From: Vibrio vulnificus CMCP6
Lineage (GTDB): Bacteria; Pseudomonadota; Gammaproteobacteria; Enterobacterales; Vibrionaceae
Direction of reading: 5' to 3'
Assembly: GCF_000039765.1 (NCBI RefSeq)
Contig: NC_004460.2
Coordinates: forward strand, 390,001-422,000
DNA length: 32,000 nt
Shown: positions 3,372 to 30,390 of the stretch, in pieces
How positions within the stretch are numbered: position 1 is the first letter of the stretch
Layout of the letters: every line of letters begins with the position of its first letter
Notes under the pieces: model-generated
Database searches by the model: none
What the model was told of the DNA's origin: nothing
What the model saw: only the letters and a program-made list of their open reading frames with translations
Program-made: the position numbers and the translations under genes

Positions 3372-3701
3372 ACGAGTAAAAACTCTAGTTTTATTTACTA
3401 TTTTGCGTATTTTTGTGCGGTCACAAGTATGCAAAGCCCCTTTCATCACCAAATAATTACGTTCAAATAACATGCCAAACAGCGAGCGAGCTGTTTTCAT
3501 CCTGTAAACAAGAGAAAAACCGCTTTGATTAACCCAATATTACTCGCACATTCGAGCTCATATATTGAGAACTTTATCAAGTAGTTATTGATTTGAGATA
3601 CAGAAAACAAGATCCTTATCAAGCCTCGTTGCATGCGTAATTGAACGGATGTCCAAGATAAGAGAAACTTGTTGTATAACAGTAATTATAGTGATGTTGA
3701 A

Positions 3702-6700
3702 ATGATTAGCTTTGCGGACTTACGTATTCGTCCTAAATTGATTGCCCTCTTAATAATTTTTGGCATTTTACCCATGGTTTGCGTCACCCTTTTCAGTGGC
3801 CGCATGGCATCGGAAGCCCTAATAAAAAAATCCTTCCAAGAATTGCTTGCTATTCAGACGCTAAGAAGCGCCTCGATTGATACCTTTTTTGAAAAACGAT
3901 TACTCGATATTGGCACTTTAGCAGGCACAGACGAGCTGCGCGATTTCGCGACGGGGTTAACGACAGGGGTTAGCGTCAACTACTCGATTGAAGAAGTCGA
4001 AGACTCTGTGATCAGCTCTTTCACCAGCGCCTATGATTACAATGATTTTTTCGTACTCTCCCCAGACAAAGGAAAGATCCTCTACGCTCTGCACGATAAA
4101 AGCCGCATCAATGCGAACAGCTTAAGCTACGAAAACACCGATCCGTCACTGGCGAAAGTGTGGGCCAAAACCGTGGCAAAGAGCACGACATATTTTACTG
4201 ATTTTGCAAAAAGTAAAGCGGCACAAGGGCAATATGTTGCCTACTTTTCTGCCCCAATCCTCGATCACGACGGCAATTTGATTGCCATTGCAGCCATGCA
4301 AGTTTCCCCACAGTTGGTGACTAAAATCGTCGACTCGCGAGTCGGAATGGGTGAAACGGGCGAATCGTACCTTTTGGGTCTCGACGCCACCAGCAATCAA
4401 TTTACCCTGCGCTCTGACATCGTTACCATGGGCAATGGCCGCTATGTGGTTGGCTTTAGACTTGGCTACGATCTCGACTATTGGACAGATGCCCGTTCAG
4501 CAGGTGACACCGGAGGCCAAGGCACATACATCGACAGTGCTGGCCGCCCTGTTCTGGTCACATTTAACCGTATTCAAGTACCCGGCTACGATTGGTATTT
4601 GATCTCAAAGATCAATCAAGATGAAGTCACCACACCAATTACTCGCATCTATCAAGCACTGACCATTATTACTGCGATGATTTTTGTGTTGATCTGTTTT
4701 GTTGCGATCAAATTCTCCAACTCCGTAACTTCGCCCTTGTTGGCCAGTATGGATTTTGCGCAGCACATTGCCAAAGGAAAGCTCGATTCCTCGCTGACCA
4801 TTGATAGAAAAGATGAACTCGGTGAGTTAGGGAGTTCACTCAATAACATGGCTTCACAGTTGCGTGATCTTGATTGGCTAAAATCGGGGAAAGAAACGCT
4901 AGATAATGAACTTCGTGGCGATATTGAGCTGAGCGAGCTGTCTAACCGATTTATTCGTTTTTTCACGCGTCATCTGAATGCCCAATTGGGCGCCTTCTAT
5001 CTCTTCGAGAATGGGCAGCTTGAGTTGAATGCTTCCTACGCGTTTTCTGATCGCGCCGGTAATTTCAATCGCATTCAAATTGGCGAAGGAATGGTTGGCC
5101 AAGCCAGCTTGGAGCAGCAAGTGATTGCGTTTAACCATGTTACAGACGAGGCACCCGTTTACAACTTCGCCGCGGGTGATTGCGTTCCAACGCATTTCTT
5201 AGCCATTCCACTGTGTGTGGATAAGCAACTGATCGGCACTGTGTTACTCGGCGCTTTCCATGAATTTTCCCCTATTCAGAGACGCTTTATTAACGAAGTC
5301 GTGGGCAATTTGGCTATCGTTTTCAACGCCACAAAAGCGCGTTTAGTGATTAAATCCCTGCTTGAAGAGACGCAACAGCAAAAAGCACATCTCAGCAAAG
5401 CGAATGAAGATCTCGAAGCGCAAACACAGGCACTGCGCGTTTCGGAAGAAGAACTGCAAGCGCAGCAAGAAGAACTTCGCGTCACTAACGAAGAGCTAGA
5501 AGAGCAAACCAAAGTTCTGCGTGCTTCTGAAGCGGAGCTGCAAGCGCAACAAGAAGAACTGCGTGTAACCAATGAAGAGTTGGAAGAGCGCACTAAAGCG
5601 CTAGAATCGCAACAAGTAGAAATGAAGGAGAAAAACGAGGCACTTCATCAGGCGCAACTTGTTGTCGAAGAGAAAGCCAAAGAGCTGGAAATTGCCAGCA
5701 AATATAAGTCTGAGTTTTTGGCCAACATGTCCCATGAACTTCGTACTCCGCTAAACAGCATCCTGATTTTGTCTCAGTTGTTTGCCAATAACAAAGACGG
5801 CAACTTAACAGCGAAGCAGATTGAATCAGCCAAAGCCATTAACTCATCGGGCTCAGACCTTCTTTCCCTAATCAATGAAATTCTTGACCTATCAAAGGTT
5901 GAGGCAGGCAAGATCGATCTGCACATTGAAGACGTGCCCCTACAAACGGTGGAACAAGATCTTCTGAGACTTTATCAAGACATCGCCGATGATAAAGGTT
6001 TGGACTTCCAAGTGATTTGCGCACCAAACTTGCCACAAACGCTTGAAACAGACGCTCAGCGTTTACAGCAAATCTTGCGCAACTTACTGACCAACGCCTT
6101 CAAGTTTACGCACGAGGGTGCCGTGACATTGAATATGGCCTTGCCTTCTCCTGAACAAGCGAAGCTGCTCGATAAACCTCGTGAAGCGTTGATCGCATTC
6201 TCTGTCAAAGACGACGGCATTGGCATTAAACAAGAGCAGCAGTTGGCTATCTTCCAAGCCTTCCAGCAAGCCGATGGCAGTACCAGTCGTAAATATGGCG
6301 GTACAGGGCTAGGTCTGTCGATTTCGAAAGAGTTGACGCATTTACTTGGCGGACGTATTCACCTCAAGAGCGAAGAAGGAAAAGGCAGCATCTTTACGGT
6401 GATCTTCCCTACTCGTTATGAAGTCAAAGAGTCTGAATCGCAACCGACCCTATCGCCGATTAGCTTAGCTCCAATGGAGCCAATGGACGTTGTTGAACGC
6501 GAAGAGCCAACACCTCCTGCTCAAGATGCACCCTCTGTTGAAAAAGAGCCCGTTCCCCAATTGAATGGATTCAAAAAAGCGGACAGCATCAAACAGGACA
6601 ACGATAGCTATGTCGAAGATGACCGACAAACCGTGGTGCCAGAAGATCGTACTTTGTTGATCATTGAAGATGATCGTGCGTTCGCCAGCGTTATGCGTGA

Positions 6701-7814
6701 TTTTGGCCGCGAACGTGGCTTCAAATGCATTGTGGCGGAAACCGGAGAAACAGGCCTGCACTTTGCTCAGTACTATAAGCCCAGCGCCATCATTCTTGAT
6801 ATCGGCCTACCTGGCATCGATGGCTGGACCGTCATGGAGCGACTCAAAGAAAACCCTGAAACGCGCCATATCCCGGTTCATTTTATGTCTGCCAATGACG
6901 CAAACCTCGATGCACTGCGCATGGGAGCAATCGGCTACCTAACCAAACCAGTCGATATGAAAAAGCTCGAAAAAGCGTTTGGTAATATCGAAGATATTCT
7001 CTCTAAACCCGTAAAACGTTTGTTGGTGGTTGAAGATGACGCCATCCAACAAGAGTCTATTCGCCAGCTAATCGGTGAAGATGACATTCATATCGTAGCG
7101 GTTCCAACTGGTGAAAAAGCACTCGAAGAATTGGAGTCCAATCGCTACGACTGCATGGTGTTGGATCTGGGCTTAGAAGACATGACCGGTTTTGAGCTAC
7201 TTGAACGTATTCGTCGAAGTGAAACGGCAGCTCGAGTACCGATTATCGTCTACACCGGACGCGAGTTAAGTAAAGAAGAAGAGCGTGAACTCAATCGCTA
7301 TGCAGAGAGCATTATTATTAAAGGGGTGAAGTCACCAGAGCGTCTTTTGGATGAGTCTGCCCTCTTCCTGCACCGTGTAGAAGCTAACTTGCCTAGTGAG
7401 CAACGCGGTATTTTAAGAGCCGTGCACAACAAAGAGTCCGTCTTAACGGGCAAGAAAGTCTTGCTGGTGGATGATGATATGAGAAACGTCTTCGCGCTAT
7501 CGAGCATTCTTGAAGATAAAGGAATGGATATTGTGATTGCACGCGATGGCGTAGAGAGCCTAGACAAGCTCAAAGAAAACCCAGACATCGATGTGGTGCT
7601 CATGGACATCATGATGCCGAAGATGGACGGTTATGAAGCAATGGAAGAGATCCGCAAACAAAAAGTGTATGAAAAGCTGCCTGTCATTGCTTTAACGGCG
7701 AAAGCCATGAAAGGCGACAGAAGCAAGTGCATCGAAGCGGGCGCAAGTGATTATTTAGCGAAACCGGTCAATACCGATAAGTTACTTTCAATGTTAAGAG
7801 TCTGGTTGTACTGA
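3702..7814 (+). CDS. Hybrid sensor histidine kinase: TM - periplasmic Cache-like domain - TM - HAMP - GAF - long coiled coil - HisKA/HATPase - three tandem receiver domains
   Basis: The ORF track opens at TTG 3669; I prefer ATG 3702 (MISFADLRIRPKLIALLIIFGILP, a typical sensor N-terminus). The second TM is ALTIITAMIFVLICFVAIKF. H-box is FLANMSHELRTPLNS (His codon 5733..5735), N-box is LRNLLTNAFKFT, and G-boxes are DDGIGI and GGTGLGLSISK. The three REC domains each keep the acidic pair, phospho-Asp, Thr/Ser and Lys: LLIIEDD...IILDIGLPGIDG, LLVVEDD...MVLDLGLEDMTG, VLLVDDD...VLMDIMMPKMDG. Confidence 0.9.
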   Translation: MISFADLRIRPKLIALLIIFGILPMVCVTLFSGRMASEALIKKSFQELLAIQTLRSASIDTFFEKRLLDIGTLAGTDELRDFATGLTTGVSVNYSIEEVEDSVISSFTSAYDYNDFFVLSPDKGKILYALHDKSRINANSLSYENTDPSLAKVWAKTVAKSTTYFTDFAKSKAAQGQYVAYFSAPILDHDGNLIAIAAMQVSPQLVTKIVDSRVGMGETGESYLLGLDATSNQFTLRSDIVTMGNGRYVVGFRLGYDLDYWTDARSAGDTGGQGTYIDSAGRPVLVTFNRIQVPGYDWYLISKINQDEVTTPITRIYQALTIITAMIFVLICFVAIKFSNSVTSPLLASMDFAQHIAKGKLDSSLTIDRKDELGELGSSLNNMASQLRDLDWLKSGKETLDNELRGDIELSELSNRFIRFFTRHLNAQLGAFYLFENGQLELNASYAFSDRAGNFNRIQIGEGMVGQASLEQQVIAFNHVTDEAPVYNFAAGDCVPTHFLAIPLCVDKQLIGTVLLGAFHEFSPIQRRFINEVVGNLAIVFNATKARLVIKSLLEETQQQKAHLSKANEDLEAQTQALRVSEEELQAQQEELRVTNEELEEQTKVLRASEAELQAQQEELRVTNEELEERTKALESQQVEMKEKNEALHQAQLVVEEKAKELEIASKYKSEFLANMSHELRTPLNSILILSQLFANNKDGNLTAKQIESAKAINSSGSDLLSLINEILDLSKVEAGKIDLHIEDVPLQTVEQDLLRLYQDIADDKGLDFQVICAPNLPQTLETDAQRLQQILRNLLTNAFKFTHEGAVTLNMALPSPEQAKLLDKPREALIAFSVKDDGIGIKQEQQLAIFQAFQQADGSTSRKYGGTGLGLSISKELTHLLGGRIHLKSEEGKGSIFTVIFPTRYEVKESESQPTLSPISLAPMEPMDVVEREEPTPPAQDAPSVEKEPVPQLNGFKKADSIKQDNDSYVEDDRQTVVPEDRTLLIIEDDRAFASVMRDFGRERGFKCIVAETGETGLHFAQYYKPSAIILDIGLPGIDGWTVMERLKENPETRHIPVHFMSANDANLDALRMGAIGYLTKPVDMKKLEKAFGNIEDILSKPVKRLLVVEDDAIQQESIRQLIGEDDIHIVAVPTGEKALEELESNRYDCMVLDLGLEDMTGFELLERIRRSETAARVPIIVYTGRELSKEEERELNRYAESIIIKGVKSPERLLDESALFLHRVEANLPSEQRGILRAVHNKESVLTGKKVLLVDDDMRNVFALSSILEDKGMDIVIARDGVESLDKLKENPDIDVVLMDIMMPKMDGYEAMEEIRKQKVYEKLPVIALTAKAMKGDRSKCIEAGASDYLAKPVNTDKLLSMLRVWLY
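5433..5600 (+). repeat. In-frame tandem duplication of a 28-aa (84-nt) coiled-coil unit inside the kinase
   Basis: Unit 1 (5433..5516) is LRVSEEELQAQQEELRVTNEELEEQTKV. Unit 2 (5517..5600) is LRASEAELQAQQEELRVTNEELEERTKA. Each unit is four heptads, and the two copies differ by many synonymous changes. Confidence 0.9.
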
Positions 7815-7815
7815 T

Positions 7816-8655
7816 ATGGAAAGCGTCACTGAATTGTCAAACGAACAACTGGAAATTCAGTTGTTACTTGAAGCGATATACCGCAAATATGGCTACGATT
7901 TTCGTGAATATTCGCTTGCCCATACCAAGCGTCGATTAGAGTATCGACGCGCCATCGAGGGCATGTCGAATTATTCGCAAATGCAGCACAAAGTGATCAA
8001 TGAGCCGCGATTCTTCGACCAAATGCTGTTGGACTTATCCATCAACGTCACCGAAATGTTCCGTGACCCTTGGTTCTATCGACGAGTGCGAGAGGTGATC
8101 ATCCCGCACTTGCAAACCTACCCTTTTGTCAAAGTGTGGCATGCCGGCTGCTCTGCTGGGCAAGAAGTGTACTCAATGGGCATTTTGTTGGAAGAAGAAG
8201 GCATGAAGGATCGCGCGCAAGTCTACGCGACCGATTTCAACGAAGCGATTTTAGAGAAAGCCAAGCAAGGCATTTACCCGATGGACCTGATTCGTCAGTA
8301 CACGGCCAACTACCAAGCTGCCGGGGGAAGTGCTTCGTTTTCCGACTACTATACGGCGGATTACGACAGCGTAATCATGAAGACAGCCCTGAGAGAGAAA
8401 ACTTTGTTTACCCCTCACAATTTGGCGACCGATGGCGTTTTTGGGGAAATGAATGTTATATTCTGCCGAAATGTATTGATCTACTTTAACCGTGAGCTTC
8501 AAGACCGCGTTTTTCGTCTGTTTTACGACAGTTTGATGCCGGGGGGCTTCCTGTGTCTTGGCTCTAAAGAATCAATGCGTTTTTCTTCTATCGCGGACAA
8601 GTTTGATCTGGTCTCCGAAAAAGAAAAGATCTATCGCAAGAAACGGATAAGGTAA
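7816..8655 (+). CDS. CheR-type protein-glutamate O-methyltransferase
   Basis: The ATG lies 1 nt after the kinase stop. CheR hallmarks are present: NVTEMFRDP, VWHAGCSAGQEVYSMGILL (SAM-binding), IFCRNVLIYF. Confidence 0.88.
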   Translation: MESVTELSNEQLEIQLLLEAIYRKYGYDFREYSLAHTKRRLEYRRAIEGMSNYSQMQHKVINEPRFFDQMLLDLSINVTEMFRDPWFYRRVREVIIPHLQTYPFVKVWHAGCSAGQEVYSMGILLEEEGMKDRAQVYATDFNEAILEKAKQGIYPMDLIRQYTANYQAAGGSASFSDYYTADYDSVIMKTALREKTLFTPHNLATDGVFGEMNVIFCRNVLIYFNRELQDRVFRLFYDSLMPGGFLCLGSKESMRFSSIADKFDLVSEKEKIYRKKRIR

Positions 8656-8657
8656 GC

Positions 8658-9239
8658 ATGGATTGTTGTAGGCACAAATATGAAGCAGTGGTAATCGGGG
8701 CATCCGCTGGAGGATTGGCCGCCGTTGCAACGGTATTACAGCAACTTAAGGATTCATTTTGTATCCCTATTTTGTTGGTTCAGCATATCAGTGCCTCTCC
8801 TGAGAGTTACATTGCCGCCCATTTTGATAGCAAGAGCCATTTGTCGGTCCATGAGGCAGAAGACAAGCAGCCAATCAAAAACGGCAACATGTACATCGCA
8901 CCACCCAATTACCATATGATGATAGAGACCGATGGTTGTATCGCACTGTCGGTCGATCCGCCCGTCAATTTTTCACGGCCTTCCATCGACGTGCTGTTCG
9001 AAACGGCGGCTGATTATTATAGAAACGCGTTGATCGGTATCGTATTGACAGGCGCTAATTCCGACGGTGCTTTAGGTCTCAAAAAAATCAAAACACTGGG
9101 TGGACTAACTCTAGTCCAATCCATTGATAGTGCAGAAGCGAAAGCCATGCCTGCTGCGGCCATGGCTGCCGTTGATGTCGACCACATCCTTTCTTTGGAA
9201 GAGATTGGTCATTATTTAAATACTTTATGTGATTGCTGA
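8658..9239 (+). CDS. CheB-type protein-glutamate methylesterase/glutaminase, catalytic domain only (no receiver domain)
   Basis: The ATG lies 2 nt after the CheR stop. At 193 aa it is the size of the CheB C-terminal domain alone. Catalytic-triad contexts are present: IGASAGG (Ser), LLVQHIS (His), LTGANSDGALG (Asp). Confidence 0.85.
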   Translation: MDCCRHKYEAVVIGASAGGLAAVATVLQQLKDSFCIPILLVQHISASPESYIAAHFDSKSHLSVHEAEDKQPIKNGNMYIAPPNYHMMIETDGCIALSVDPPVNFSRPSIDVLFETAADYYRNALIGIVLTGANSDGALGLKKIKTLGGLTLVQSIDSAEAKAMPAAAMAAVDVDHILSLEEIGHYLNTLCDC

Positions 9240-9241
9240 AC

Positions 9242-10258
9242 ATGCCTGATAAACCAACCCTACTCATCGTTGATGACAAAATCGAAAACCTACTGACTTT
9301 AGAAGGTTTACTAGAGTGCTTTGATGTCAATTTGGTGCGTGCCACGTCAGGCGAAGAAGCGCTTGCTCATACCTTAGACCACGACTTTGCCCTGGTCTTG
9401 CTTGATGTACAAATGCCAAACATGAATGGCTTTGAAGTCGCCGAGTTGATGCGAGGGAATCGCAAGACGCGCAATATCCCAATTATCTTTGTCACAGCCG
9501 CATCCAAGGCCGATGAACACATTTTTAAAGGGTATGAGCATGGCGCTGTTGATTACTTATTAAAGCCGCTGAATACCCTGGTGTTTCAAAGTAAGGTGCG
9601 TGTTTTTCTCGAGCTTTACGAGCAGCGACATGCACTTAAGAAAAAAACCTTAGAGTTCGATCAGAAATTGGCCGAATTGGAAGAGTTGCAGCAGCAACTC
9701 GAAGAGACCAACGAACAATTATTATTGCTGTCAACCACAGACAGTTTAACAGGCCTGAACAACCGCCGTCGTTTTGAAGAGATATTCCAAGACGAATGGC
9801 ACCGCTCACAACGTTCAAGTGTCCCTATTTCGATGATCATTTTTGACATAGACCACTTTAAGAAATACAACGACACCTTTGGCCATCAACAAGGCGATGA
9901 GTGCTTACGTATGATTGCGGAAGCCATTCGTAGCATGAAGCTTCGCTGTCTCGACAAAATCGCGCGCATTGGCGGTGAAGAGTTTGCCGTAATATTGCCT
10001 GAAACGGAAATGGAAGGCGCGAAACACGTTGCTAACCGCATTCGCACCACGATAGAAGAGCTAAGTATTACCCATAGTCATCATGCAACCTTGCCATACG
10101 TAACGGCAAGTCTCGGCGTTTGCTCCATCGTGCCAGAAATCGACACCAATCCACGGTTGCTTCTGAAAAAGGCCGATGAAGCCTTGTATCGCGCCAAACG
10201 TACTGGCCGCAATCGCATTGCCGAAGCGCAGTTTGATGAGTTGTACGAACAGATCTAA
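9242..10258 (+). CDS. Response regulator - coiled coil - GGDEF diguanylate cyclase (GGEEF active site, RxxD I-site)
   Basis: I prefer ATG 9242 (MPDKPTLLIVDD), 2 nt after the CheB stop, over the track's TTG 9233. REC motifs are LLDVQMPNMNG, FVTAA and YLLKP. The cyclase has RCLD-KIARI-GGEEF at 9944..9985. Confidence 0.9.
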   Translation: MPDKPTLLIVDDKIENLLTLEGLLECFDVNLVRATSGEEALAHTLDHDFALVLLDVQMPNMNGFEVAELMRGNRKTRNIPIIFVTAASKADEHIFKGYEHGAVDYLLKPLNTLVFQSKVRVFLELYEQRHALKKKTLEFDQKLAELEELQQQLEETNEQLLLLSTTDSLTGLNNRRRFEEIFQDEWHRSQRSSVPISMIIFDIDHFKKYNDTFGHQQGDECLRMIAEAIRSMKLRCLDKIARIGGEEFAVILPETEMEGAKHVANRIRTTIEELSITHSHHATLPYVTASLGVCSIVPEIDTNPRLLLKKADEALYRAKRTGRNRIAEAQFDELYEQI

Positions 10259-10282
10259 CTCGCGTTTTCTTTGTGTACATTG

Positions 10283-10301
10283 AGGGGCTGCGGCCCCTTT
10301 T
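10283..10301 (+). terminator. Rho-independent terminator closing the kinase-CheR-CheB-cyclase operon
   Basis: AGGGGC-tgcg-GCCCCT followed by TTTT, about 25 nt after the stop at 10258. Confidence 0.65.
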
Positions 10302-10483
10302 CTATGCTTTTTCTCTTCTTATTTCTTTGCCTATCCATCACCGCTCTTGTCACTCTCGCGTTTGGCCTTAACTTACTCCCTTACAACAAATTCTCACCAT
10401 TCGAGAAAAAGATAAATTTATTTCATTCCTTTTCCTATCTAATAAGAATTATATTTGTGTTATAGATTTGTACACGATAAAAA

Positions 10484-11221
10484 ATGATGAAAGACAACAA
10501 GATGAACGCCAATCAGGTTAATGAGAAAACCCTACAACTGCTGATGCAGGTTGCGGTGAACGACGAGCCCGTTTCAGCCAAGACCTTAAGTGAACAGCTT
10601 GCTGTTCCGCTCAGCAGCTTGTATCGCCATTTAAAGCTCCTAAAAGAGTGGAACCTGATTGAAGAAAGTGCCCATGAAAAAACCTTTATCGTGGGACCCG
10701 CCGCGTTACTTTTGATGCGTAGTTACCAAACGTCTCAACACAGTCTTGAATCTGTCGAGACAATTTTGGCGCGTTTGCAGCATCAAACCGGCGAGTTGGC
10801 GGCGTACATGGTGCCCGTGGGTTATCGCGCTTTGTGCGTTCGTCAAAAAGAGAGTATGCAGGCGCTACGCTGTAGCTACGTCCAGGGTCAAAGTCAACCT
10901 CTACTGCGTGGCGCCTCATCGAAAGTCATGTTGGCATTTATGCCACCTGAACGATGTGAAAGGATTTTACGCTACTTCGGCCAAGAAGCTCGTCTAAACG
11001 AGTGGCAAACCGAATTAGAGATGATTCGTAAAAACGGTTATGCCGTCAGCACATCAGAAATCGATCCCGGCGTGTCTGGCATCAGCGCCCCGGTAATGAA
11101 AGGAAGTAAATTGATCGGAGCGGTTTCCGTCATGGCTCCAGCTCATCGAGTTGAAGCGGATAAGCAGCGTATCATTTTACATGTTTTGCAGGCAGCGAGA
11201 GCGCTTCCACCAGAAAGGTAA
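10484..11221 (+). CDS. IclR-family transcriptional regulator
   Basis: It has an N-terminal winged HTH (AKTLSEQLAVPLSSLYRHLKLLKEWNLI) and a C-terminal IclR-type effector domain (GISAPVMKGSKLIGAVSVMAP). The exact start is uncertain because there is no clear RBS. Confidence 0.8.
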   Translation: MMKDNKMNANQVNEKTLQLLMQVAVNDEPVSAKTLSEQLAVPLSSLYRHLKLLKEWNLIEESAHEKTFIVGPAALLLMRSYQTSQHSLESVETILARLQHQTGELAAYMVPVGYRALCVRQKESMQALRCSYVQGQSQPLLRGASSKVMLAFMPPERCERILRYFGQEARLNEWQTELEMIRKNGYAVSTSEIDPGVSGISAPVMKGSKLIGAVSVMAPAHRVEADKQRIILHVLQAARALPPER

Positions 11222-11228
11222 TGCAGTC

Positions 11229-12065
11229 ATGTTAGGCTTTTTCAAACGCTATCAAAAGAACCATACAGTTCAACATCATCACTATCCGTACTCGTTTATC
11301 ACCGTCAGTGAGTACATCAAACCGATGACATTAGTAGAGTTTGAATCTGCCCAACAGAGCTTAGAAAACGCAAGCGAATGGCTTTATCAGAGCCATCAAA
11401 AGCGCAATATTGCGCTGTGCTCACATTTTAGTCATCACGATGTCGAAAACGGGCATTATCAAGAAACGTTGAGTCAAATGGTCTCGCGCCATGCCATCCC
11501 TGTCGTGTTGACCAATTGCCATGAAACTCTGCTCTCTGCCCTACCCGTCGTACTGGCAGGACATGAAGAGGTTGGTTTAATGAACATCAACCACAACATG
11601 GGACTGAAATCGACGCTGGATGTGAAGTTAGGTTCCGCCTACCATTTTGCGCTCACTCGCTACCCAAACAGCCGAGCGTTTTTTGTTGGCGTCAGTCAAG
11701 AATCAACTGCAAACGAGCTGTTTGAGTACGCGGAAGATCTCGGGTCCAATTGGCTTACGGAGAAAGAATTTTCTTTCCGTCATCGTTATGATGTGAAAGA
11801 ACAAATTGGGAACTTTATCGACCATTGTGACAAGCTCGTTCTCTCTATCGATTTGGCTTCTCTTGTCACCAAAGCCAATATTGATAATCACCATACACTG
11901 GATATTCAAATGGTACTGAGAACGCTGCGCCAATGTATTGTTTCTGGCAAAGTGTCACTCATTCAGTTGATTGGCTCTCGCGATGGCTTGATTTTCTCAA
12001 GAGAGTGCAAAGCGATCTTAGAAGAATTGGAGCAGCTTACTGAGTTTGCTCATCATGCAGCCTAA
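11229..12065 (+). CDS. Arginase/agmatinase/formimidoylglutamase-fold-like protein with degenerate metal-ligand motifs (function unknown)
   Basis: The start is moved to ATG 11229 (MLGFFKRY), 7 nt after the IclR stop; the track's 11151 start overlaps IclR. The motif order and spacing resemble ureohydrolases: PVVLTNCHE for xGGDHS, MNINHNMG for DAHxD, LSIDLASLV for SxDxDxxD. Most acidic ligands are replaced. This is a by-eye alignment only. Confidence 0.45.
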   Translation: MLGFFKRYQKNHTVQHHHYPYSFITVSEYIKPMTLVEFESAQQSLENASEWLYQSHQKRNIALCSHFSHHDVENGHYQETLSQMVSRHAIPVVLTNCHETLLSALPVVLAGHEEVGLMNINHNMGLKSTLDVKLGSAYHFALTRYPNSRAFFVGVSQESTANELFEYAEDLGSNWLTEKEFSFRHRYDVKEQIGNFIDHCDKLVLSIDLASLVTKANIDNHHTLDIQMVLRTLRQCIVSGKVSLIQLIGSRDGLIFSRECKAILEELEQLTEFAHHAA

Positions 12066-12092
12066 AAAAAATCACCCTCGCGGGTGATTTTC
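12064..12092. terminator. Bidirectional rho-independent terminator between convergent genes
   Basis: AAAAAAA-ATCACCC-tcgc-GGGTGAT-TTTT, read directly. Confidence 0.8.
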
Positions 12093-12108
12093 TATTTCTG
12101 TTCTCTCA

Positions 12109-13392
12109 TCAGTTACGACGAGCTTTGATTCGCTTCATCATCGCTAAGCGACGTTCCGCTGCCGCTTGATCCGTTGGCTCATTCGCGTTGTTACGACGGC
12201 CTTGACGATTCTTAAATGATGGCTTGCTGTTGAGCTTATCAATGTATGCTTCACGGCTCTTAGGCTCGTAACCCGCCAACTCGATGCGACGAATACGTTG
12301 TTGAATCAGATTTTCAACTTGAACCACCGTTAGCTCTTCTTCACGATTGACAAAAGAGACCGCATGACCTTGTTTTCCTGCACGACCAGTACGACCAATG
12401 CGGTGAACATAGTCTTCTGCCAAGAACGGCATGTCGTAGTTGACCACGTGTGGTAAATCTTCAATATCCAGACCGCGTGCCGCCACGTCGGTAGCAACCA
12501 TCACACGAACTTTTCCTTCTTTGAACTCTTCAAGCGCACGGCGACGCGCACTCTGCGCTTTATCACCATGACACACATTTGCTTTGATGCCGTCGAGCTT
12601 CAACTCTTTGACAATGTCGTTCGCCGTTTCTTTGTAGTTAACAAATACCAACACTTGTTGCCAGTTTTTACGACCGATCAACTCAGAAAGCAGTTCTGTT
12701 TTACGCTCTTGATCAACAGGATACAACACGTGCGCTACCGTATGCGCCGTGGTGTTTTCGCGCTCGACCGCAATACGTTTTGGCTTGCGAAGAATGTCTT
12801 TGGACAATTCATTCAATTGGCTTGATGTGGTTGCTGAGAACATCATGATTTGTGGGTTGGTTTCAACATCCAACATGATCTTACGCACAGCGTTGATGAA
12901 GCCCATATCGAGAATACGGTCAGCTTCATCAAAGACAAGGAATTCGATGTTCGCCACTGACACATTGCCTGACTCGATGTGCTCTTCTAGACGACCAGGT
13001 GTCGCAACGAGGATATCGACGCCATTCTCAAGCATACGCTCTTGGCTCGACATTTTTCGACCACCAAAGATCGCCGCCACAGAGAGATTCGTGTACTTGG
13101 TATAGGCCTTAATGTTATCCGCAATCTGCTCTGCCAGCTCTCGAGTTGGCGCAAAAATCAGTGCTCTCGCCGTTTTACGCGAAGCAGACTTTCCGCTTTC
13201 GAGCAATTGTTGGATCAGTGGAAGAGAAAAAGCCGCTGTTTTACCCGTTCCTGTTTGAGCGGTAGCAAAAATATCGTGCCCGCGACGTGCAACAGGAATG
13301 GCTTTTTGCTGAATTGGGGTTAGCTTTTCGTAACCGCACTCTTCGAGCGCTTTCACGACTTCCGGAGCAAAACCTTGAGATGCAAATGACAT
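12109..13392 (-). CDS. rhlE: DEAD-box ATP-dependent RNA helicase RhlE
   Basis: The start is moved to ATG 13392 (MSFASQGF), which has AAGGA about 9 nt upstream. Motifs: Q motif GYEKLTPIQ, AQTGTGKT, VFDEADRILDMGF, SAT, HRIGRTGRAG, and a basic C-terminal tail. Confidence 0.88.
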   Translation of the reverse strand: MSFASQGFAPEVVKALEECGYEKLTPIQQKAIPVARRGHDIFATAQTGTGKTAAFSLPLIQQLLESGKSASRKTARALIFAPTRELAEQIADNIKAYTKYTNLSVAAIFGGRKMSSQERMLENGVDILVATPGRLEEHIESGNVSVANIEFLVFDEADRILDMGFINAVRKIMLDVETNPQIMMFSATTSSQLNELSKDILRKPKRIAVERENTTAHTVAHVLYPVDQERKTELLSELIGRKNWQQVLVFVNYKETANDIVKELKLDGIKANVCHGDKAQSARRRALEEFKEGKVRVMVATDVAARGLDIEDLPHVVNYDMPFLAEDYVHRIGRTGRAGKQGHAVSFVNREEELTVVQVENLIQQRIRRIELAGYEPKSREAYIDKLNSKPSFKNRQGRRNNANEPTDQAAAERRLAMMKRIKARRN

Positions 13393-13759: not shown

Positions 13760-16747
13760 ATGTCCAAATGGCATTTGCTCGCGTTGTCTATTTCACTGCC
13801 TTTTACCAGCAATGCGCTCGAGTATGATCTTTATAATGCAGAACACTTTAACCAACTTTGTAACCAAAGCACGTCACAGCAGGGGGATATTTTCCGTTGC
13901 AACGGCGAATTTTCACTACCAAATGGCGCGAAGCTGATTGCTTCGAAAGCGCCTAAGAATGGCGTGACACTCTCTGCGTTTAGCGGCGCAATTTTGCATG
14001 GTAACAACCAAGTCGGCTCGCCAGATAAGCGTATTTCAATCACGGCGTTATCTACCGGCATTTCCATTTTGCAACCGAGTCATGGTCCTCAACCTAAGGA
14101 GTACCATCGCAGCCAAATATTTGGTGATTTGAACTCACAGAATTTCATTCATATGACCAACGCAGAGGTGGATGGAAATGTTGCCACTCAAGGCTTGGAT
14201 GTGATGACACATGGTGATCATAACATCATCAATGGTGATGTTTTTGGCCATCACAAAGTGGTTCTGAACAACACCAATGTATGCGGCGATATTGCTTCTC
14301 TAGGGCACCAGATATTCATTACTTCGAACAAGGCGACGCATTACGTTGTAGGAAATATCACCTCCCTCAACAAGCTTGATCTCCGCAACATCGATGTCTA
14401 TGGCCAAATACACTCTCAAGGAAGCAGCGCACATTTAGATCTCTCCGGTAGTGCGGTTTACGCGCAAAAAACGGCGCTCAATTTGCTCCAAAGTGGTTTG
14501 GTGGAAAACGGCGTCGTTTGCGGCGAGATCACCGCCCATCAATCCAATATTCGTAATGTGGAAAACTACTGTGGTATAAGCGATCTCGGTTGTGATTATT
14601 CCAACCAAGGGGCTAACACAGCGTGCCCTGTGCCAGAAAGTATCCCATTGTGTGAGATCAAGCCCCCGGTTGATCACGATTACGAGTTTGTCATTAGCCC
14701 TGAAAACGACATGGCGTTGATGTGTGGAGAAAACCTTCCTCAGTTCAATATAACAACCTCCAATAATGGGGAATTAGCCAGCGTCAGCATGTTTGCTGAG
14801 GTCTCTGATCCCGCATTATTTGATGTCGTGATCGCCAATGGCATCGGTTCCGGCGCTTACCCGAACTTTGTCTCCTCCAGTCAGGGGCAGCTTCGCCTTG
14901 TCGTTCGACCTAAGAACATCAGCGCCATCAAGTTGGATAGGCATTACACCTTAAGCGTGTACCCAAATGGTGAGCCCAAAAAGCGCAAGACTGTGCGCTT
15001 CTTGTTCACGCCTTATATGTTTGAAACGTATGATCCTAATTCTGGCCAAGCCATCAACGAACTCGCTCTGGTTGCGGCAAAACCAGAGCCTTTAGGTGTT
15101 CGACTGTTGGCCTGTAATGACAAAGGGAACCCTGTTGTTGCGAGCAGCTATCACGGCAACCCGACCATCACTCACACCGTGACTACGCCGTCAAAACAAC
15201 AGGGTGGTCGTGATGGTGAACGCGTCTATCAACCTATATTTACCAGCGGCATAAGTGAAAATACGATTTCACTTTCTGAGTCTGGGCTATTTGCGTTAAA
15301 CATCTACGATACTTTTGACTGTGCTGGGTTCGACCAGTGCCCGCCATCAGGAAAGAACAAAGTATCTGGTCGTTTATCACTCAAAGTTCGCCCTTGGACC
15401 CTCGCTATTTGCGAAGGCGATCGAGCCCTTGAATCTGGCGATGCGCTAGGCGGTTCGCCTTTCCTTCCTGCAGGCGAACGTTTTTCTCTCAATCTCATGC
15501 CTATTCAATGGGTCGCCAATGGTAGCCTCACCCAGGCAGTTAACACTCAAGCGCTCTGCTCTACACCAGTAACGCACAACTTTTATCTGTCCAACGCCCC
15601 TGCTGCGCGGGTAAAACTCAGCAGTCAACAGGCAACGCCAGTCGAAACGGCGACAGCTCAAACTCGACTGCTGGAAAGCGACTCAGGAATGGAGAGAGCG
15701 CATGATGACGTTACCAATGGTGCGTATTGGTTTGATGGGTTGCGATGGCGTGAAGTTGGCAGCCTCAGAGTGCAATCCGACCTCGTTGATCCTTATCTTG
15801 GAATGAAGGTCAACCAAGGTTATCGCTACATTGGGCGTTTCTATCCCAAGTATTTTAAGGTACATAACCAACAGTGGGATTATCCAAATAGCCAAACCTT
15901 TGCTTACATGAATCAGCCATTTGATCAGGTGATCGTCGATATCGACGCGTTAAATAGCCTTAAAGAACCCATCGCCAACTACCATTATTTTTCAACCACG
16001 GCGCACTTTGAACTGGCAGAACTCGGCGATCACTTAGAGCGGTTTGTCACGCCTTCTCTTGCGCCTACTCAATGGCGCGAGGAGCAAGGCAGCAGTATCG
16101 GCCGCATTCGCATCGTGAAACAGGATCATTGCGCCAACAGCGCTTGTTGGCTTAAGGACGACATTGGCCAAAATTACCCTGATGGGCCTTTTAACACCTA
16201 CTCGGACTCTGCAGTAAGCAAAATTGGCCTCGTCTATCTTGAAAACGCGGACCCTGTGGCTTTTTACGACGACACGCATATTTTGCCCGTTCAACCCGAT
16301 GTGCGATTTGGACGGCTCAATTTTGAAGATGTGGGTGGATATCAGGGACAAACCATCGTCGTACCATTGGATGTGGAATATTGGCGAGCGGGTGAGTTTG
16401 TGAACAACAAACATGACCATTTCACTCTCGCTGATGGCGCAAAACACTACCATCAACCCATTTGGTCACACAGCCTTGAGAACAACGCCTATCTCGCTGG
16501 TATCGGCAAGATGCATTACGGAAGTACTGAAGGCATCAAAGCAACACAAAAAGTCCCTGCTCGCGAACAGATTCGCTTTTGGTTGGATTTAACTTCAACG
16601 CAAAACAATTTGCCTTGGCTGCAATACGATTGGGACAAAACAAGTGATGGAGAAGAAGATCCTTCAACCGTTGTCACTTTCGGGATTCATCGTGGTCACG
16701 ACAAAATCATCTTCCGTGGTGAGCCGAATCTGACGGGTGTTCTCTAG
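13760..16747 (+). CDS. Large (995 aa) secreted protein with an N-terminal beta-helix-like repeat region; possibly MshQ-like
   Basis: AGGAAA lies 8 nt upstream of the ATG. Signal peptide is MSKWHLLALSISLPFTSNA. The motif x-G-[DNQE]-I-x-S recurs every ~17-25 aa (CGDIASLG, VGNITSLN, YGQIHSQG, CGEITAHQ) between about nt 14120 and 14555. The MshQ resemblance is from memory only. Confidence 0.8.
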   Translation: MSKWHLLALSISLPFTSNALEYDLYNAEHFNQLCNQSTSQQGDIFRCNGEFSLPNGAKLIASKAPKNGVTLSAFSGAILHGNNQVGSPDKRISITALSTGISILQPSHGPQPKEYHRSQIFGDLNSQNFIHMTNAEVDGNVATQGLDVMTHGDHNIINGDVFGHHKVVLNNTNVCGDIASLGHQIFITSNKATHYVVGNITSLNKLDLRNIDVYGQIHSQGSSAHLDLSGSAVYAQKTALNLLQSGLVENGVVCGEITAHQSNIRNVENYCGISDLGCDYSNQGANTACPVPESIPLCEIKPPVDHDYEFVISPENDMALMCGENLPQFNITTSNNGELASVSMFAEVSDPALFDVVIANGIGSGAYPNFVSSSQGQLRLVVRPKNISAIKLDRHYTLSVYPNGEPKKRKTVRFLFTPYMFETYDPNSGQAINELALVAAKPEPLGVRLLACNDKGNPVVASSYHGNPTITHTVTTPSKQQGGRDGERVYQPIFTSGISENTISLSESGLFALNIYDTFDCAGFDQCPPSGKNKVSGRLSLKVRPWTLAICEGDRALESGDALGGSPFLPAGERFSLNLMPIQWVANGSLTQAVNTQALCSTPVTHNFYLSNAPAARVKLSSQQATPVETATAQTRLLESDSGMERAHDDVTNGAYWFDGLRWREVGSLRVQSDLVDPYLGMKVNQGYRYIGRFYPKYFKVHNQQWDYPNSQTFAYMNQPFDQVIVDIDALNSLKEPIANYHYFSTTAHFELAELGDHLERFVTPSLAPTQWREEQGSSIGRIRIVKQDHCANSACWLKDDIGQNYPDGPFNTYSDSAVSKIGLVYLENADPVAFYDDTHILPVQPDVRFGRLNFEDVGGYQGQTIVVPLDVEYWRAGEFVNNKHDHFTLADGAKHYHQPIWSHSLENNAYLAGIGKMHYGSTEGIKATQKVPAREQIRFWLDLTSTQNNLPWLQYDWDKTSDGEEDPSTVVTFGIHRGHDKIIFRGEPNLTGVL

Positions 16748-18651: not shown

Positions 18652-20616
18652 TCACTTAATTTGCTCAGGGGTGATCGCGCGATCACGTCCCAAACTTTTC
18701 GCTTGGTAAAGGCACATATCCGCGGTAACAAAGGCGTCAGAGCTGTTTTTCAACTCATTGAGACCGCAAGGTTCACTGGCCCCTACTGAAATAGTGATGT
18801 TGTAACTTTTCCCTTTCAATTGATAAGCGGAAGTCCGAATCGACTCCACCAGCTTTTGCAAACGTAAAGGAAGATCATCGTCATTTTTGAGTACCAGAAG
18901 AAACTCTTCACCACCCCAGCGTACAAACAACTCATCGGATGCCAACTGTTGTTTGATGCGTTTGGCGGTTTCAACGAGGACAAAATCCCCAATCTCATGA
19001 CCATGCGTATCGTTGATGGATTTAAACCAGTCAAGATCAACAAGGACAATTCGATAGAGATGGGCACGATTGAGCAGATTTGGTGTTTCAATTTCCCTTT
19101 GGAAGAAACGTCTATTGTTGGCCCCTGTCAGCGGGTCCACATAGGACAGCGTTTGCAAATGAAGGTTGTGCTTGCGAATAATGGCCATTCTGCGCACTCC
19201 CAAAAGCAAGAGTAACCCGACAATCACAATCCAAATCATTAGAATGCGCTGACGCTGCTCATTCAAACTACGCTCTAATTCGCGCAGTTGATTTTGCGCT
19301 TCGTATAGATCGCGCTCTTTCGCGACTTCTTGTACTTCAAAGGAGGTTTGTAGAGCGTGAACTTCGCCAATAATTTGCTGTTTCTCTTGGGCGTAATACT
19401 TCTTATAAAGGCTTAACGCTTCTGCATGCAGCCCTTTAGCTTCGAGAATGTTGGCCCGTAATAAATGGGCACGAATGGTCCAACGAGCATGTTGTAAATG
19501 TTCAAATGTGGCAATGGCACTATCCACTGCACTTTGCGCCGCATCCAACTGTTTACCCGCGAGATAGCTTTCCGCCTGAATATAAGTGCAAATGCCATTT
19601 TGCAAAGGATAGGTATTGTTTGCATCGAGCTTGACACAGGCAACAGCGACATCAATCGCACGTTCAAACTCTTCATCAAGCAAATACAGCCGAGCCTCAC
19701 TTTTGAGTTTCAAAATCCGATAATACGTCGAGGTGTTCTCGCCAAAATAACGTAAGGCCCTATCGTACGCGGCTTTGGCTTGCTCCTTTTGTTTAAGCTG
19801 TTGGTAAACAAACGACTGATTAAGCAATATCACCAGTTGGCGATTGGGCTGAGTCACACCGATCGATTCATAGAATGTTTCGGCCCGTTGGAGAAAATCC
19901 AATGCCTTATCCCACTGTTCTAAATGAACATAAAGCAGCCCCAAGTTGTTAAGATAACGGCCAATAAACGCGTTGTTAGGAAACCTTTCACTTAATTCTA
20001 ACCCTTGGTAAAACGCCAATTGTGAGCGCTTTAGTTGATTGGTGGCATTGTACAAGATACCCAAGGTGTTAAACCCTTCCAGTAACAGGAAATCAGCACC
20101 GTTTTCATTTGCCATCGCCATACCGTGCTCGACGTGCTTTAACCCCTCATCAAACTGGCCTTGCTTCAACTCTCGTCCCGCTTTTTCGATAATTAACTGG
20201 GCACTCAACCAAGCCATTTTTCGTTGAGACGCAAACTGCTCTAACTGGCCAGTTAACTGGTCAACTCGCTCTTGAGATTGTTGTGTTTTGGCGATTTCAC
20301 GTTTAATCAGCAAGGTATAAATATGCTCTAGATCCGCTCTTGCACTGTGATGCTTAGTTTCCCACTTTGTCCCCTTCTCCCATTCAGCGAGTAACGCTTG
20401 CGCTTTATCGGGTTCTATCTGAACCAATGGCATGATGTTGAGTAACGGATGATGAGCAGAAAAGGTTTTGAGCTGCTCTTCGGGGGAGGCTAACATTTTT
20501 ACCGAGCGGGTTTGGGGATATGAAGCCGTATCTTGATCAACAAACACGTCCCAAGTCACGATAGACAAAGCGAGAAGAAGTAAAATTAATAGAGAAAAAG
20601 CGAGCTTTTTGTGCAT
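18652..20616 (-). CDS. Membrane-anchored periplasmic TPR-repeat sensor fused to a GGDEF diguanylate cyclase
   Basis: N-terminal anchor FSLLILLLLALSIVTW. About 400 aa of TPR-like repeats (LGILYNATNQLKRSQLAFYQGLEL, LGLLYVHLEQWDKALDFLQRA). Second TM ILMIWIVIVGLLLLLGV. GGDEF domain with RWGGEEF. There is no RxxD five residues upstream (LASD instead). Confidence 0.85.
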   Translation of the reverse strand: MHKKLAFSLLILLLLALSIVTWDVFVDQDTASYPQTRSVKMLASPEEQLKTFSAHHPLLNIMPLVQIEPDKAQALLAEWEKGTKWETKHHSARADLEHIYTLLIKREIAKTQQSQERVDQLTGQLEQFASQRKMAWLSAQLIIEKAGRELKQGQFDEGLKHVEHGMAMANENGADFLLLEGFNTLGILYNATNQLKRSQLAFYQGLELSERFPNNAFIGRYLNNLGLLYVHLEQWDKALDFLQRAETFYESIGVTQPNRQLVILLNQSFVYQQLKQKEQAKAAYDRALRYFGENTSTYYRILKLKSEARLYLLDEEFERAIDVAVACVKLDANNTYPLQNGICTYIQAESYLAGKQLDAAQSAVDSAIATFEHLQHARWTIRAHLLRANILEAKGLHAEALSLYKKYYAQEKQQIIGEVHALQTSFEVQEVAKERDLYEAQNQLRELERSLNEQRQRILMIWIVIVGLLLLLGVRRMAIIRKHNLHLQTLSYVDPLTGANNRRFFQREIETPNLLNRAHLYRIVLVDLDWFKSINDTHGHEIGDFVLVETAKRIKQQLASDELFVRWGGEEFLLVLKNDDDLPLRLQKLVESIRTSAYQLKGKSYNITISVGASEPCGLNELKNSSDAFVTADMCLYQAKSLGRDRAITPEQIK

Positions 20617-24000: not shown

Positions 24001-24147
24001 TTTAACGTCAAAGGTTTTACTGTCTCGACAGAGTGGAATGGCAACACCATTGATTCTCAAGGTGAGATTTGGGACGGGCTCTTTATCCACCCTGAATCTG
24101 AGCAAACACTGATTAACTACGGTTTTATTGAGGCTCCCACGCCGTAG
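21025..24147 (+). CDS. Large lipoprotein with thrombospondin type-3-like Ca-binding repeats
   Basis: AAGGGTGG RBS. Signal peptide with lipobox LLG-C, followed by a Gly/Ser linker (GGGSSSSSGGSSSSS). Asp-rich DxDxDG repeats span 21790..22254. The remaining ~630 aa have no motif I recognise. Confidence 0.85.
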   Translation: MNKNKIVMALGLSVSVGLLGCGGGSSSSSGGSSSSSYSVTAIDGYLQNAQVWLDLNKNFIWDTGEPKATTGAGGKATLDVTGVDNPESYPIVVKAIKGKTVDEDTGNTIATDYVMSAPAGEQDITPLSTMVHVLLERDETLTKDEAVQTVATQLGITSDDVLGDYIEDNDVEAAFGAKTLVSSGVLPETPEELASEADEETTTTSTFLTEAQTVNTETKEHIETEKSALGEGEELNLDDKVGTFDPVTGTVTFEEDSDGDGVANSQDWAPDNSEEWLDSDGDDIGDNADTDDDNDGTLDVDDAFPFDAEETTDTDDDGIGNNTDTDDDNDGTLDTDDAFPLNPEETVDTDKDGVGNNADTDDDNDGALDGDDAFPLNPEETTDTDKDGIGNNADTDDDNDGILDVDDSNPTVPDLNPIEQVIQFMQNNSMFYALWADHEYNDATGTESVEIYVEKFTLANNIGTVTEAYQMLPDGRKVADEPDANDEDDIVLGPNGWQTFNDTYAIAINSDAVSVYPEEVPSLTNTAYGYVKDLSGLNMAEHSGELGDYVDADAVFPEGAEGGIVKLTADVDQYFLWFKPWFWRASGNTSDDGHNATNLTEIQVAPADISQTGDDVHTAKGISIGMHVGVQFVTDGTTRFMTLDWWNESTQQPGTVTINGTGTWSQVVVNGETIIRYSVPDSVVEAWGEVWDNDSQQLILSVYGGIVHSGDYLLAGQSEEDDEGYLLNETAKEALIGAVNLPGWCPITEVASGATLADFQAQIADCQLPVMDPEGAVLYRVNSSGETRVQAYAANNEALRFKNGTPSTKYWMVNQEGTLEFGDDAQNIWDYKRAIMDVDEDGILSMATFDPETGEISLGLYQEVDLSQPFTYCETSNSDWDEVNEVPTTFFSFNTYADALKGCVDDTAYRAAKFTSTFIGEQLVMKDEDGTITFLANNTGTFVSTDENIQFTWTEHDAENGIIALSYSFVDDNQVAQNNTTYMGFAYSNGIQFNVKGFTVSTEWNGNTIDSQGEIWDGLFIHPESEQTLINYGFIEAPTP
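21889..22254 (+). repeat. 3.5 tandem copies of a 105-bp (35-aa) coding repeat, DTDDDNDGxLDxDDAFPxxxEETxDTDxDGxGNNx
   Basis: Unit boundaries at 21889, 21994, 22099 and 22204 were verified codon by codon. Copies differ mostly at synonymous positions. Confidence 0.9.
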
Positions 24148-27047: not shown

Positions 27048-27057
27048 GCGTTTGTCC

Positions 27058-27900: not shown

Positions 27901-27911
27901 AGTGCCGACTC

Positions 27912-28880: not shown

Positions 28881-28907
28881 AACGACTCCTTGTTATTCAT
28901 TGATGCG

Positions 28908-30269: not shown

Positions 30270-30280
30270 CGATTTTCTCC

Positions 30281-30317
30281 AAAAAAAAAGCGCCACGACT
30301 CCGAGGAGTCGTAGCGC
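30281..30317 (-). terminator. Leader (attenuator) terminator immediately upstream of the binding-protein gene
   Basis: The minus-strand RNA is GCGCUACGACUC-CUCG-GAGUCGUGGCGC (12 bp including one G-U), followed by U9. The RBS and ATG follow 11 nt later. Confidence 0.85.
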
Positions 30318-30353: not shown

Positions 30354-30390
30354 AGATTCGCCATTCAACAATGTGTCTAAATAAAGCTAT

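Follow-up and report, generated by a model that had tools for sequence, protein, structure and literature searches.

In Bacillus cereus, the hybrid kinase RsbK (CHASE3-HAMP-GAF-'S-helix'-HisKA-HATPase-REC) shares an operon with RsbM, a CheR-like enzyme. RsbM places methyl groups on the S-helix of RsbK, which lies between the GAF and HisKA domains, and in this way represses signalling through sigma-B; 127 RsbK-like kinases were counted in 10 phyla (PMC4574943). An earlier comparative study, in the form in which it is cited in PMC12848376, describes RsbK-type kinases as genomically associated with CheR. In Pseudomonas putida, the cfcABCDE genes encode the hybrid kinase CfcA, the CheR CfcB, the CheB CfcC and the REC protein CfcD, and CfcA is needed for the activity of the diguanylate cyclase CfcR (PMC4951495). 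CfcA is described in the literature as a multisensor CHASE3/GAF hybrid kinase. Here we analyse a comparable locus of Vibrio vulnificus CMCP6, in a stretch of 32,000 nucleotides (nt) from contig NC_004460.2 (positions 390,001 to 422,000; hereafter the window, in whose own numbering positions are given). Its subject is a long, repetitive heptad coil between the GAF and HisKA domains of a hybrid sensor histidine kinase, whose gene is followed by genes for CheR, CheB and a REC-GGDEF regulator.

We propose that the coil is probably a methyl-accepting helix of an RsbK/CfcA-type kinase, on which CheR would write and CheB would erase methyl groups at Glu pairs in heptad positions b and c. This reading is well supported, though indirectly, because cheR and cheB adjoin the kinase gene, no methyl-accepting chemotaxis protein (MCP) or CheW is found nearby, CheR tracks both coil length and the number of Glu-Glu (EE) pairs in related loci, and experiments have shown that a CheR-like enzyme methylates the equivalent helix of RsbK. 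The idea itself is not new, as it restates the published RsbK/RsbM finding, and for the window alone it is mostly rediscovery. The less explored points seem to be the presence of an eraser, the modularity of the coil in whole heptads and 28-residue units, and a heptad type common to this coil and CheB/CheR fusion proteins.

Coil and enzyme genes of the Vibrio kinase

The coil lies in four units, listed here with kinase residues counted from nt 3669.

5349..5684 (amino acids 561-672), + strand: heptad coil of four 28-residue units (heptad table, AlphaFold2, family composition)
5349..5432 (amino acids 561-588), + strand: degenerate unit 0, IKSLLEETQQQKAHLSKANEDLEAQTQA, compared in register with units 1 and 2
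5433..5516, + strand: unit 1, encoding LRVSEEELQAQQEELRVTNEELEEQTKV, with three in-phase EE-Leu heptads
5517..5600, + strand: unit 2, encoding LRASEAELQAQQEELRVTNEELEERTKA, with two in-phase EE-Leu heptads and one A-E-L heptad
5601..5684 (amino acids 645-672), + strand: degenerate unit 3, LESQQVEMKEKNEALHQAQLVVEEKAKE, compared in register with units 1 and 2

Divided into heptads over amino acids 562-673, the coil begins with KSLLEET QQQKAHL SKANEDL EAQTQAL and continues with RVSEEEL QAQQEEL RVTNEEL EEQTKVL, then RASEAEL QAQQEEL RVTNEEL EERTKAL, and finally ESQQVEM KEKNEAL HQAQLVV EEKAKEL. Leu, Met or Val closes 13-14 consecutive heptads, and Asn, Gln, Thr or Glu comes four residues on. When related kinases are pooled, position d is Leu in 94% of heptads, a is Asn or Gln in about half, and Glu occupies b in 54% and c in 65%. 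This periodicity points to a natural register with Leu at d and Asn or Gln at a; Asn at a is familiar from dimeric leucine zippers such as GCN4. The register is taken from the sequence periodicity and not from the AlphaFold2 model, which is a monomer and cannot show it. The model predicts one unbroken helix over amino acids 535-707 (residues 2-174 of our homology query; mean pLDDT 92.7; 26-sequence alignment). The S-helix, as first defined for sensor proteins, has a characteristic sequence signature about 40 residues long; over the coil region the Pfam scan gives only weak, generic coiled-coil matches. No solved structure with EEL repeats was found in the PDB, where matches start within unit 2 (the best one gappy) or near the phospho-acceptor (DHp) domain.

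The preliminary description of this DNA had made its proposal of a methyl-accepting segment depend on the EE and QQ pairs not being buried at a or d. The EE pairs are indeed placed at exposed b and c positions, seven residues apart, whereas the QQ pair occupies g and a, with its first Gln peripheral and its second in the core. The phospho-accepting His689 lies at f. Candidate methyl-accepting pairs (b, c) in unit 1 are amino acids 594-595, 601-602 and 608-609; the EE-Leu heptads of unit 2 contribute 629-630 and 636-637, and its A-E-L heptad lies at 622-624. Near-invariant family positions within unit 2 are S620, E621, Q628, E630, N635 and E637.

In the mechanism that we favour, units 1 and 2 would be the best-kept part of a parallel coiled coil of about 17 heptads, the 'S-helix' of the RsbK papers, which would connect GAF with the phospho-acceptor helix in this membrane-bound hybrid kinase. 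Of the two co-transcribed enzymes, CheR would place methyl esters on the exposed b/c Glu-Glu pairs in x-x-x-(N/Q/E)-E-E-L heptads, and the REC-less CheB would remove them. Neutralization of charge would alter the packing or rotation of the helix and thereby set the kinase/phosphatase output, which would act through phosphorylation of the downstream REC-GGDEF cyclase on the synthesis of cyclic di-GMP (c-di-GMP). We infer the methylation of the Vibrio kinase itself, the accepting Glu residues, the reversal by CheB and the sign of the effect on c-di-GMP.

The three genes that follow the kinase are encoded as below.

7816..8655, + strand: CheR-type glutamate methyltransferase, CheR_N plus S-adenosylmethionine (SAM)-binding domain (Pfam CheR, E = 5.8e-40)
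8658..9239, + strand: CheB methylesterase domain alone, 193 amino acids, without REC (Pfam CheB_methylest, E = 7e-56, amino acids 11-186)
9242..10258, + strand: REC-GGDEF response regulator (open reading frame from 9233, ATG at 9242; GGDEF, E = 2.3e-51; Response_reg, E = 3.8e-21)

The four genes, in the order kinase, CheR, CheB and REC-GGDEF, share a strand and are separated by 1, 2 and 2 nt, the CheR start codon falling 1 nt past the kinase stop codon. The CheR translation shows VWHAGCSAGQE, which we take to be the SAM-binding motif, and that of CheB shows GASAGG, QH and SDG, presumably the catalytic Ser/His/Asp contexts. The REC-GGDEF regulator is probably an active, product-inhibited cyclase, because its GGEEF active site is intact and an RxxD motif (RCLD) stands five residues upstream, the usual place of the c-di-GMP inhibitory site. 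No MCP, CheA or CheW was found among the window open reading frames of at least 100 amino acids scanned against Pfam, and tblastn across the whole window gave no match to a Tsr probe, validated against the PDB, or to a CheW probe, used without validation.

The kinase itself comprises the following.

3669..7814, + strand: hybrid sensor histidine kinase of 1381 codons when read from the earliest possible start (open reading frame, Pfam; likely ATG at 3702)
Amino acids 65-236, + strand: dCache_1 (Pfam, sub-threshold at 36.7 bits against a cut-off of 45)
Amino acids 364-400, + strand: HAMP (Pfam)
4926..5324 (amino acids 420-552), + strand: GAF, directly upstream of the coil (Pfam GAF_2, E = 6.9e-15)
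5706..5909 (amino acids 680-747), + strand: HisKA, the DHp domain (Pfam, E = 1.2e-16)
5733-5735, + strand: codon of the phospho-accepting His689 (read from the sequence)
6051..6413 (amino acids 795-915), + strand: HATPase_c (Pfam, E = 4.4e-26)
6651..7811 (about amino acids 995-1376), + strand: three REC domains, starting near amino acids 995, 1117 and 1263 (Pfam Response_reg, three stretches, E = 2.2e-71)

The Pfam order is thus dCache_1, HAMP, GAF, long coil, HisKA, HATPase_c and three REC domains; a kinase fragment at 100% identity (P0094) is annotated Vibrio vulnificus. The cytoplasmic order of HAMP, GAF, long helix, HisKA, HATPase and REC, and the CheR-type gene in the operon, are those of RsbK. 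We liken the two by the architecture in PMC4574943 and through relatives from Bacillaceae and Paenibacillus, rather than by the sequence of RsbK itself; a search for the B. cereus protein with a Bacillaceae homologue as query found only relatives of about 1080 amino acids, the size of a two-REC kinase. Three RsbK-like kinases of Fredinandcohnia and Paenibacillus (L001, L013 and L025) have a CheR gene only, and an EEL-heptad coil and H-box as in the window. Their identity to the homology query is 51-60% (over its residues 1-211 or 50-211), and the CheRs encoded beside them are 46-53% identical to that of the window.

The differences from RsbK concern the input, the output and the eraser. The sensor of the window kinase is the sub-threshold dCache_1 rather than the CHASE3 of RsbK and CfcA, and we treat sensor type as variable and not defining for RsbK/CfcA-type kinases. 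The window kinase has three REC domains and RsbK one; the output is a REC-GGDEF cyclase instead of the REC-PP2C phosphatase RsbY; and the distance from the GAF-end anchor of the coil to the phospho-accepting His is 125 residues, against 111 to about 118 in the three RsbK-like kinases. The operon also includes a dedicated REC-less CheB, whereas RsbM has no paired esterase, so that RsbK/RsbM, the only experimentally studied example, lacks an eraser. If methylation is real, the Vibrio locus would offer a tractable Gram-negative two-component kinase with both writer (CheR) and eraser (CheB), and would show whether adaptation by reversible methylation runs outside chemoreceptor arrays, upstream of c-di-GMP, in a Vibrio pathogen.

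The cfc cluster is the Gram-negative counterpart, with kinase, CheR, CheB and receiver protein in the same order and a c-di-GMP output (PMC4951495), although the cyclase CfcR is encoded elsewhere, whereas in the window the REC-GGDEF gene comes directly after cheB. A locus of Pseudomonas viridiflava looks like cfcABCD, being a four-gene cassette with a CheR 52% identical to that of the window. Vibrio furnissii has a dCache kinase that acts on c-di-GMP, AsrK/AsrR, but the paper on it describes no GAF, CheR or CheB, so the two systems are apparently distinct. The methylated sites of RsbK are presumably Glu439 and Glu446, for which a text search found no match; if this is right and no indels intervene, they would correspond to His-66 and His-59, that is, to E623 and E630 (both at position c, each just ahead of the Leu at d), an unverified equivalence on which we do not rely.

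CheR and coil composition in related loci

The homology query (amino acids 534-744) gave more than 7600 significant matches, all with the pattern of GAF end, EEL-type coil and H-box. A query with the coil only gave 1116 clusters at 50% identity among 1.84 billion cluster representatives searched. An H-box was present in 130 of the best 149 coil-only matches, and almost all of the top matches were kinases, together with a few unrelated repetitive coiled-coil proteins. We assembled 80 loci (L001-L080; one genome per species) from at least a dozen phyla, 74 of which were evaluable downstream.

CheR is encoded directly downstream on the same strand in 31 of the 74 loci, and CheB directly after CheR in 22 of these 31. 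A gene with a REC domain follows CheB in 17 of the 22, with an output domain that varies. Every CheB in the related loci starts 8-60 nt after CheR, which therefore leaves no room for an N-terminal receiver domain, the domain that controls chemotaxis CheB. CheB is the methylesterase domain alone in the window and in the 22 related loci (for example, 13319-13876 in L003), and the window kinase has three REC domains. No MCP signalling domain or CheW was found within about 10 kb of any of the 80 loci (Tsr probe validated, CheW probe not).

The presence of CheR goes with both the length and the composition of the coil. With coil length taken as the distance between an anchor at the GAF end (LLxx[ST]Q) and the His, CheR is present in 27 of 35 loci with long coils (at least 90 residues) and in 3 of 38 with short ones (fewer than 90; Fisher p = 7.5e-10). 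At least three in-phase E-E-[LMIV] heptads occur in 23 of 31 kinases with CheR and in 1 of 43 without (Fisher p = 2e-11), and among long coils only, those with CheR have more EE heptads (Mann-Whitney p = 4e-5). These statistics are descriptive and carry no correction for shared ancestry.

Anchor-to-His distances in the 80 loci take the values 69, 76, 83 ... 132, all equal to 6 modulo 7 save for two exceptions that appear mis-anchored; the coil has therefore gained or lost only whole heptads during evolution. The distance in the window (5358-5735) of 125 equals the modal CheR-linked value of 97 plus one 28-residue unit. Patterns such as whole-heptad length, EE count in relation to CheR and the heptads of fusion proteins provide concrete residues and constructs for testing.

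Several observations weigh against methylation of the coil. In P. putida, the crinkle colony phenotype persisted in mutants of the cfc genes apart from cfcA (mentioned as unpublished by the authors of PMC4951495), and CheR and CheB are therefore not essential for that output. Our literature search found no report of a methylated CfcA or of any methylated CheB-paired kinase. A few clades (Streptomyces, Nonomuraea and Acidobacteriaceae) supply many of the loci without CheR, and the p values ignore phylogeny. E-E at the two His-proximal heptads is also common in kinases without CheR, so the motif is partly structural. The MCP methylation consensus [ASTG][ASTG]xx[EQ][EQ]xx[ASTG][ASTG] has no match anywhere in the 1381-residue kinase, with two matches in the Tsr control. 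Lastly, three kinases (L052, L069 and L076) have short, EE-poor coils yet an adjacent CheR, and may use a different methylation site. The CheR of these three loci, directly downstream of the kinase, is 32-40% identical to that of the window, and they have no CheB.

Some of these points are shared with the main rival explanation, in which the coil is only structural or signal-transmitting and CheR and CheB act on another part of the kinase, on receiver domains or on chemoreceptors encoded elsewhere. A module of coil plus HisKA as common as this one, which is present in 43 of 74 loci with no CheR neighbour, would fit such a role, but CheR goes with longer and more EE-rich coils, and the trend in EE content persists when long coils are taken by themselves. 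The seven-residue steps in the distance from GAF end to His are those of a register-preserving transmission helix, and the His-proximal E-E is conserved in CheR-less loci too; in RsbK, however, the helix itself is the methylated element. The dispensability of the other cfc genes for the P. putida phenotype also speaks for this rival. Against it, none of the 31 CheR loci has an MCP or CheW close by, and the kinase-linked CheRs form a clade of their own, far from chemotaxis CheRs. On balance we regard a purely structural coil as unlikely.

Chemoreceptors and CheB/CheR fusion proteins

The methyl-accepting coil that we favour resembles MCPs in being a Glu-rich heptad coiled coil that adjoins a HAMP-containing signalling module, with CheR and CheB encoded alongside and with Glu pairs predicted on exposed heptad positions, seven residues apart. 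Other features differ. We saw no MCP signalling hairpin, CheA or CheW for the window kinase; its coil is probably a parallel two-helix structure, whereas MCPs form an antiparallel four-helix bundle; and, unlike the chemotaxis enzymes, its CheR comes from a separate clade and its CheB has no REC domain. BLASTP of the kinase against Tsr gave nothing at E <= 100, and the Pfam scan of the kinase gave no MCPsignal match. Homology to MCPs is rejected on the lack of a consensus match and of BLAST similarity to Tsr: the coil may function in the manner of an MCP adaptation helix without belonging to the MCP family.

The preliminary description had drawn two details from the MCP analogy. The partial fit to the MCP consensus comes down to QAQQEELRVT, the best partial match, which has two of the four small flanking residues. 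Encoded Gln as a site of deamidation by CheB is rejected, because Gln is rare at b or c in related kinases (about 5%) and no commoner in loci with CheB; the QQ pairs themselves sit at g and a.

Kinase-linked CheRs of Bacteroidota, Cyanobacteria, Gemmatimonadota, Proteobacteria and Bacillota share 43-54% identity with the window CheR; this set includes the CheR-only genes beside RsbK-like kinases of Bacillaceae and Paenibacillus. The window CheR is 26-29% identical to the solved chemotaxis CheRs of Bacillus subtilis and Pseudomonas aeruginosa, and 25-34% identical to chemotaxis CheRs overall. Because identity is so much higher within the set than to the solved chemotaxis enzymes, kinase-linked CheRs are, as judged from these alignments, a separate group that travels with the kinase.

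The preliminary description had pointed to similar repeats in CheB/CheR fusion proteins, and such repeats are indeed present there. One such protein is encoded in a Nostoc locus of our set (L019).

13188-17411 of L019, - strand: CheB/CheR fusion kinase of 1407 residues, in the order CheB, CheR, coil, PAS, kinase

The coil of this protein includes the sequence RAANEEILSSNEELQSTNEELETAKEEIQATNEELNTINDEL; in a pairwise alignment of 79 residues it is 43% identical to the window coil (E = 1e-10). A search with this region gave 2028 proteins, many of them labelled 'CheB/CheR fusion protein' by JGI. The fusions carry 6-7 conserved consecutive x-[ST]-x-N-E-E-L heptads directly after CheR and before PAS_10, for example RSANEEI-LSSNEEL-QSTNEEL-ETAKEEL-QSTNEEL-TTVNEEL.

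The two settings of the heptads are distinct. Fusions have the layout CheB, CheR, coil and PAS_10, often followed by a kinase, so that their coil is fused to the enzymes and precedes PAS_10; the window enzymes are encoded by separate genes and the window coil lies between GAF and the HisKA DHp domain. The 28-residue super-repeat, with its SE-x-x-L and QxQQEEL heptads, is present in the window coil and absent from the fusions. None of the best 149 coil-only matches contains a CheR or CheB domain, and a literature search found no functional study of the fusion coil. The CheR domain of the fusions is 30-39% identical to kinase-linked CheRs, no closer than are chemotaxis CheRs. A single CheR clade common to kinase-linked genes and fusions is rejected on this ground, and the same type of heptad thus occurs with enzymes of two lineages.

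The L019 locus encodes a second protein of interest (6068-12499, + strand), a 2143-residue kinase of the same family as the window kinase with more than ten near-identical tandem HAMP-like repeats. Its coil is EE-poor, no CheR lies directly downstream, and its gene stands tail-to-tail with that of the 1407-residue fusion kinase. The families PF28019, PF28159 and PF28256 are annotated on kinase-coil proteins and on fragments of CheB/CheR fusions (P0012, P0004, P0285 and P0357).

It is possible, although doubtful, that the EE-Leu/NEEL coil is a general, modular, non-MCP methyl-accepting element that has been recruited both with the kinase-linked CheR clade and in CheB/CheR fusions. Were this so, the number of four-heptad units would set the count of modifiable sites in each sensor, and in kinases with a dedicated REC-less CheB, such as this one, methylation would be reversible, giving a two-component kinase that controls c-di-GMP true chemotaxis-like adaptation. 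The extra 28-residue unit of the Vibrio coil (125 residues against the modal 97) would then widen its adaptive range.

The fusions also bear on a further alternative, in which CheR and CheB are recruited to the NEEL/EEL heptads as a docking surface and modify residues at other places, such as the HAMP or DHp helices. Some chemoreceptors tether these enzymes by a C-terminal pentapeptide, to which such a surface may be likened. The position of the same heptad type directly after the CheR domain in fusions could mark an element of interaction or dimerization, but the fusion CheR belongs to another lineage than the kinase-linked CheRs, so a shared docking code is not an obvious expectation. The motif is also far more regular than MCP methylation sites and has no match to their consensus; the literature nevertheless places RsbK methylation on the S-helix, and we obtained no evidence of tethering. 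We consider docking quite improbable.

Age of the repeat and other genes in the window

Tandem Repeats Finder calls an array of period 84 at 5433-5589 (1.9 copies, 80% matches, 0 indels, score 216), as well as a weaker reading of the same array at period 42. Direct comparison of units 1 and 2 finds 65 of 84 nt and 24 of 28 amino acids identical; 15 codons differ, 11 of them synonymously and 4 nonsynonymously. By the Nei-Gojobori method, pS is 0.74 (saturated) and dN is 0.07, giving a dN/dS of about 0.02. Because synonymous sites are saturated while dN stays low, the duplication is, by this measure, old and its peptide held by selection. The preliminary description had likewise reported two in-frame 84-nt units at 5433-5600, each of four heptads, and had argued for selection on the peptide rather than a recent slip. 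It had set the units about 90 residues upstream of the phospho-His; they are upstream, but the figure was loose, as they span His-100 to His-45.

Units 1 and 2 are not an isolated duplication. They are the best preserved of the four 28-residue units, flanked by the degenerate ones, and the consensus of homologues from many phyla already has two units (...ELQxQQEELRxxNEELEEQTxxLxxSEExLQxQQEELxxTNEELEEK...), so that the duplication predates the divergence of these phyla. A homologue at 76% identity carries three well-preserved units. What is specific to this lineage is the overall length of the coil and the likeness of the two copies. A functionless repeat produced by recent replication slippage or misassembly, which the perfectly in-frame, indel-free tandem might suggest, is ruled out by the saturated synonymous divergence at low dN, the two-unit pattern kept across phyla and the three units of that homologue.

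The repeat is overlapped by an antisense open reading frame of 105 codons (5276-5593, - strand), which most likely just reflects the GAA/CTG-rich periodicity and is not a gene.

Elsewhere in the window, 18652-20616 (- strand) encodes a second diguanylate cyclase candidate of 653 amino acids, with TPR repeats and a C-terminal GGDEF domain. A DUF6701 protein of 995 amino acids is encoded at 13760-16747 (+ strand), and 21025-24147 (+ strand) encodes a 1040-residue protein whose sole Pfam match is a weak thrombospondin type 3 repeat. The region 24564-30371 (- strand) looks like a nitrate/nitrite assimilation cluster: it encodes an 826-residue nitrite/sulfite reductase-like flavoprotein (Pyr_redox_2, NIR_SIR, BFD-like 2Fe-2S) adjoining three ABC transporter components (ABC_tran, BPD_transp_1 and NMT1_2).

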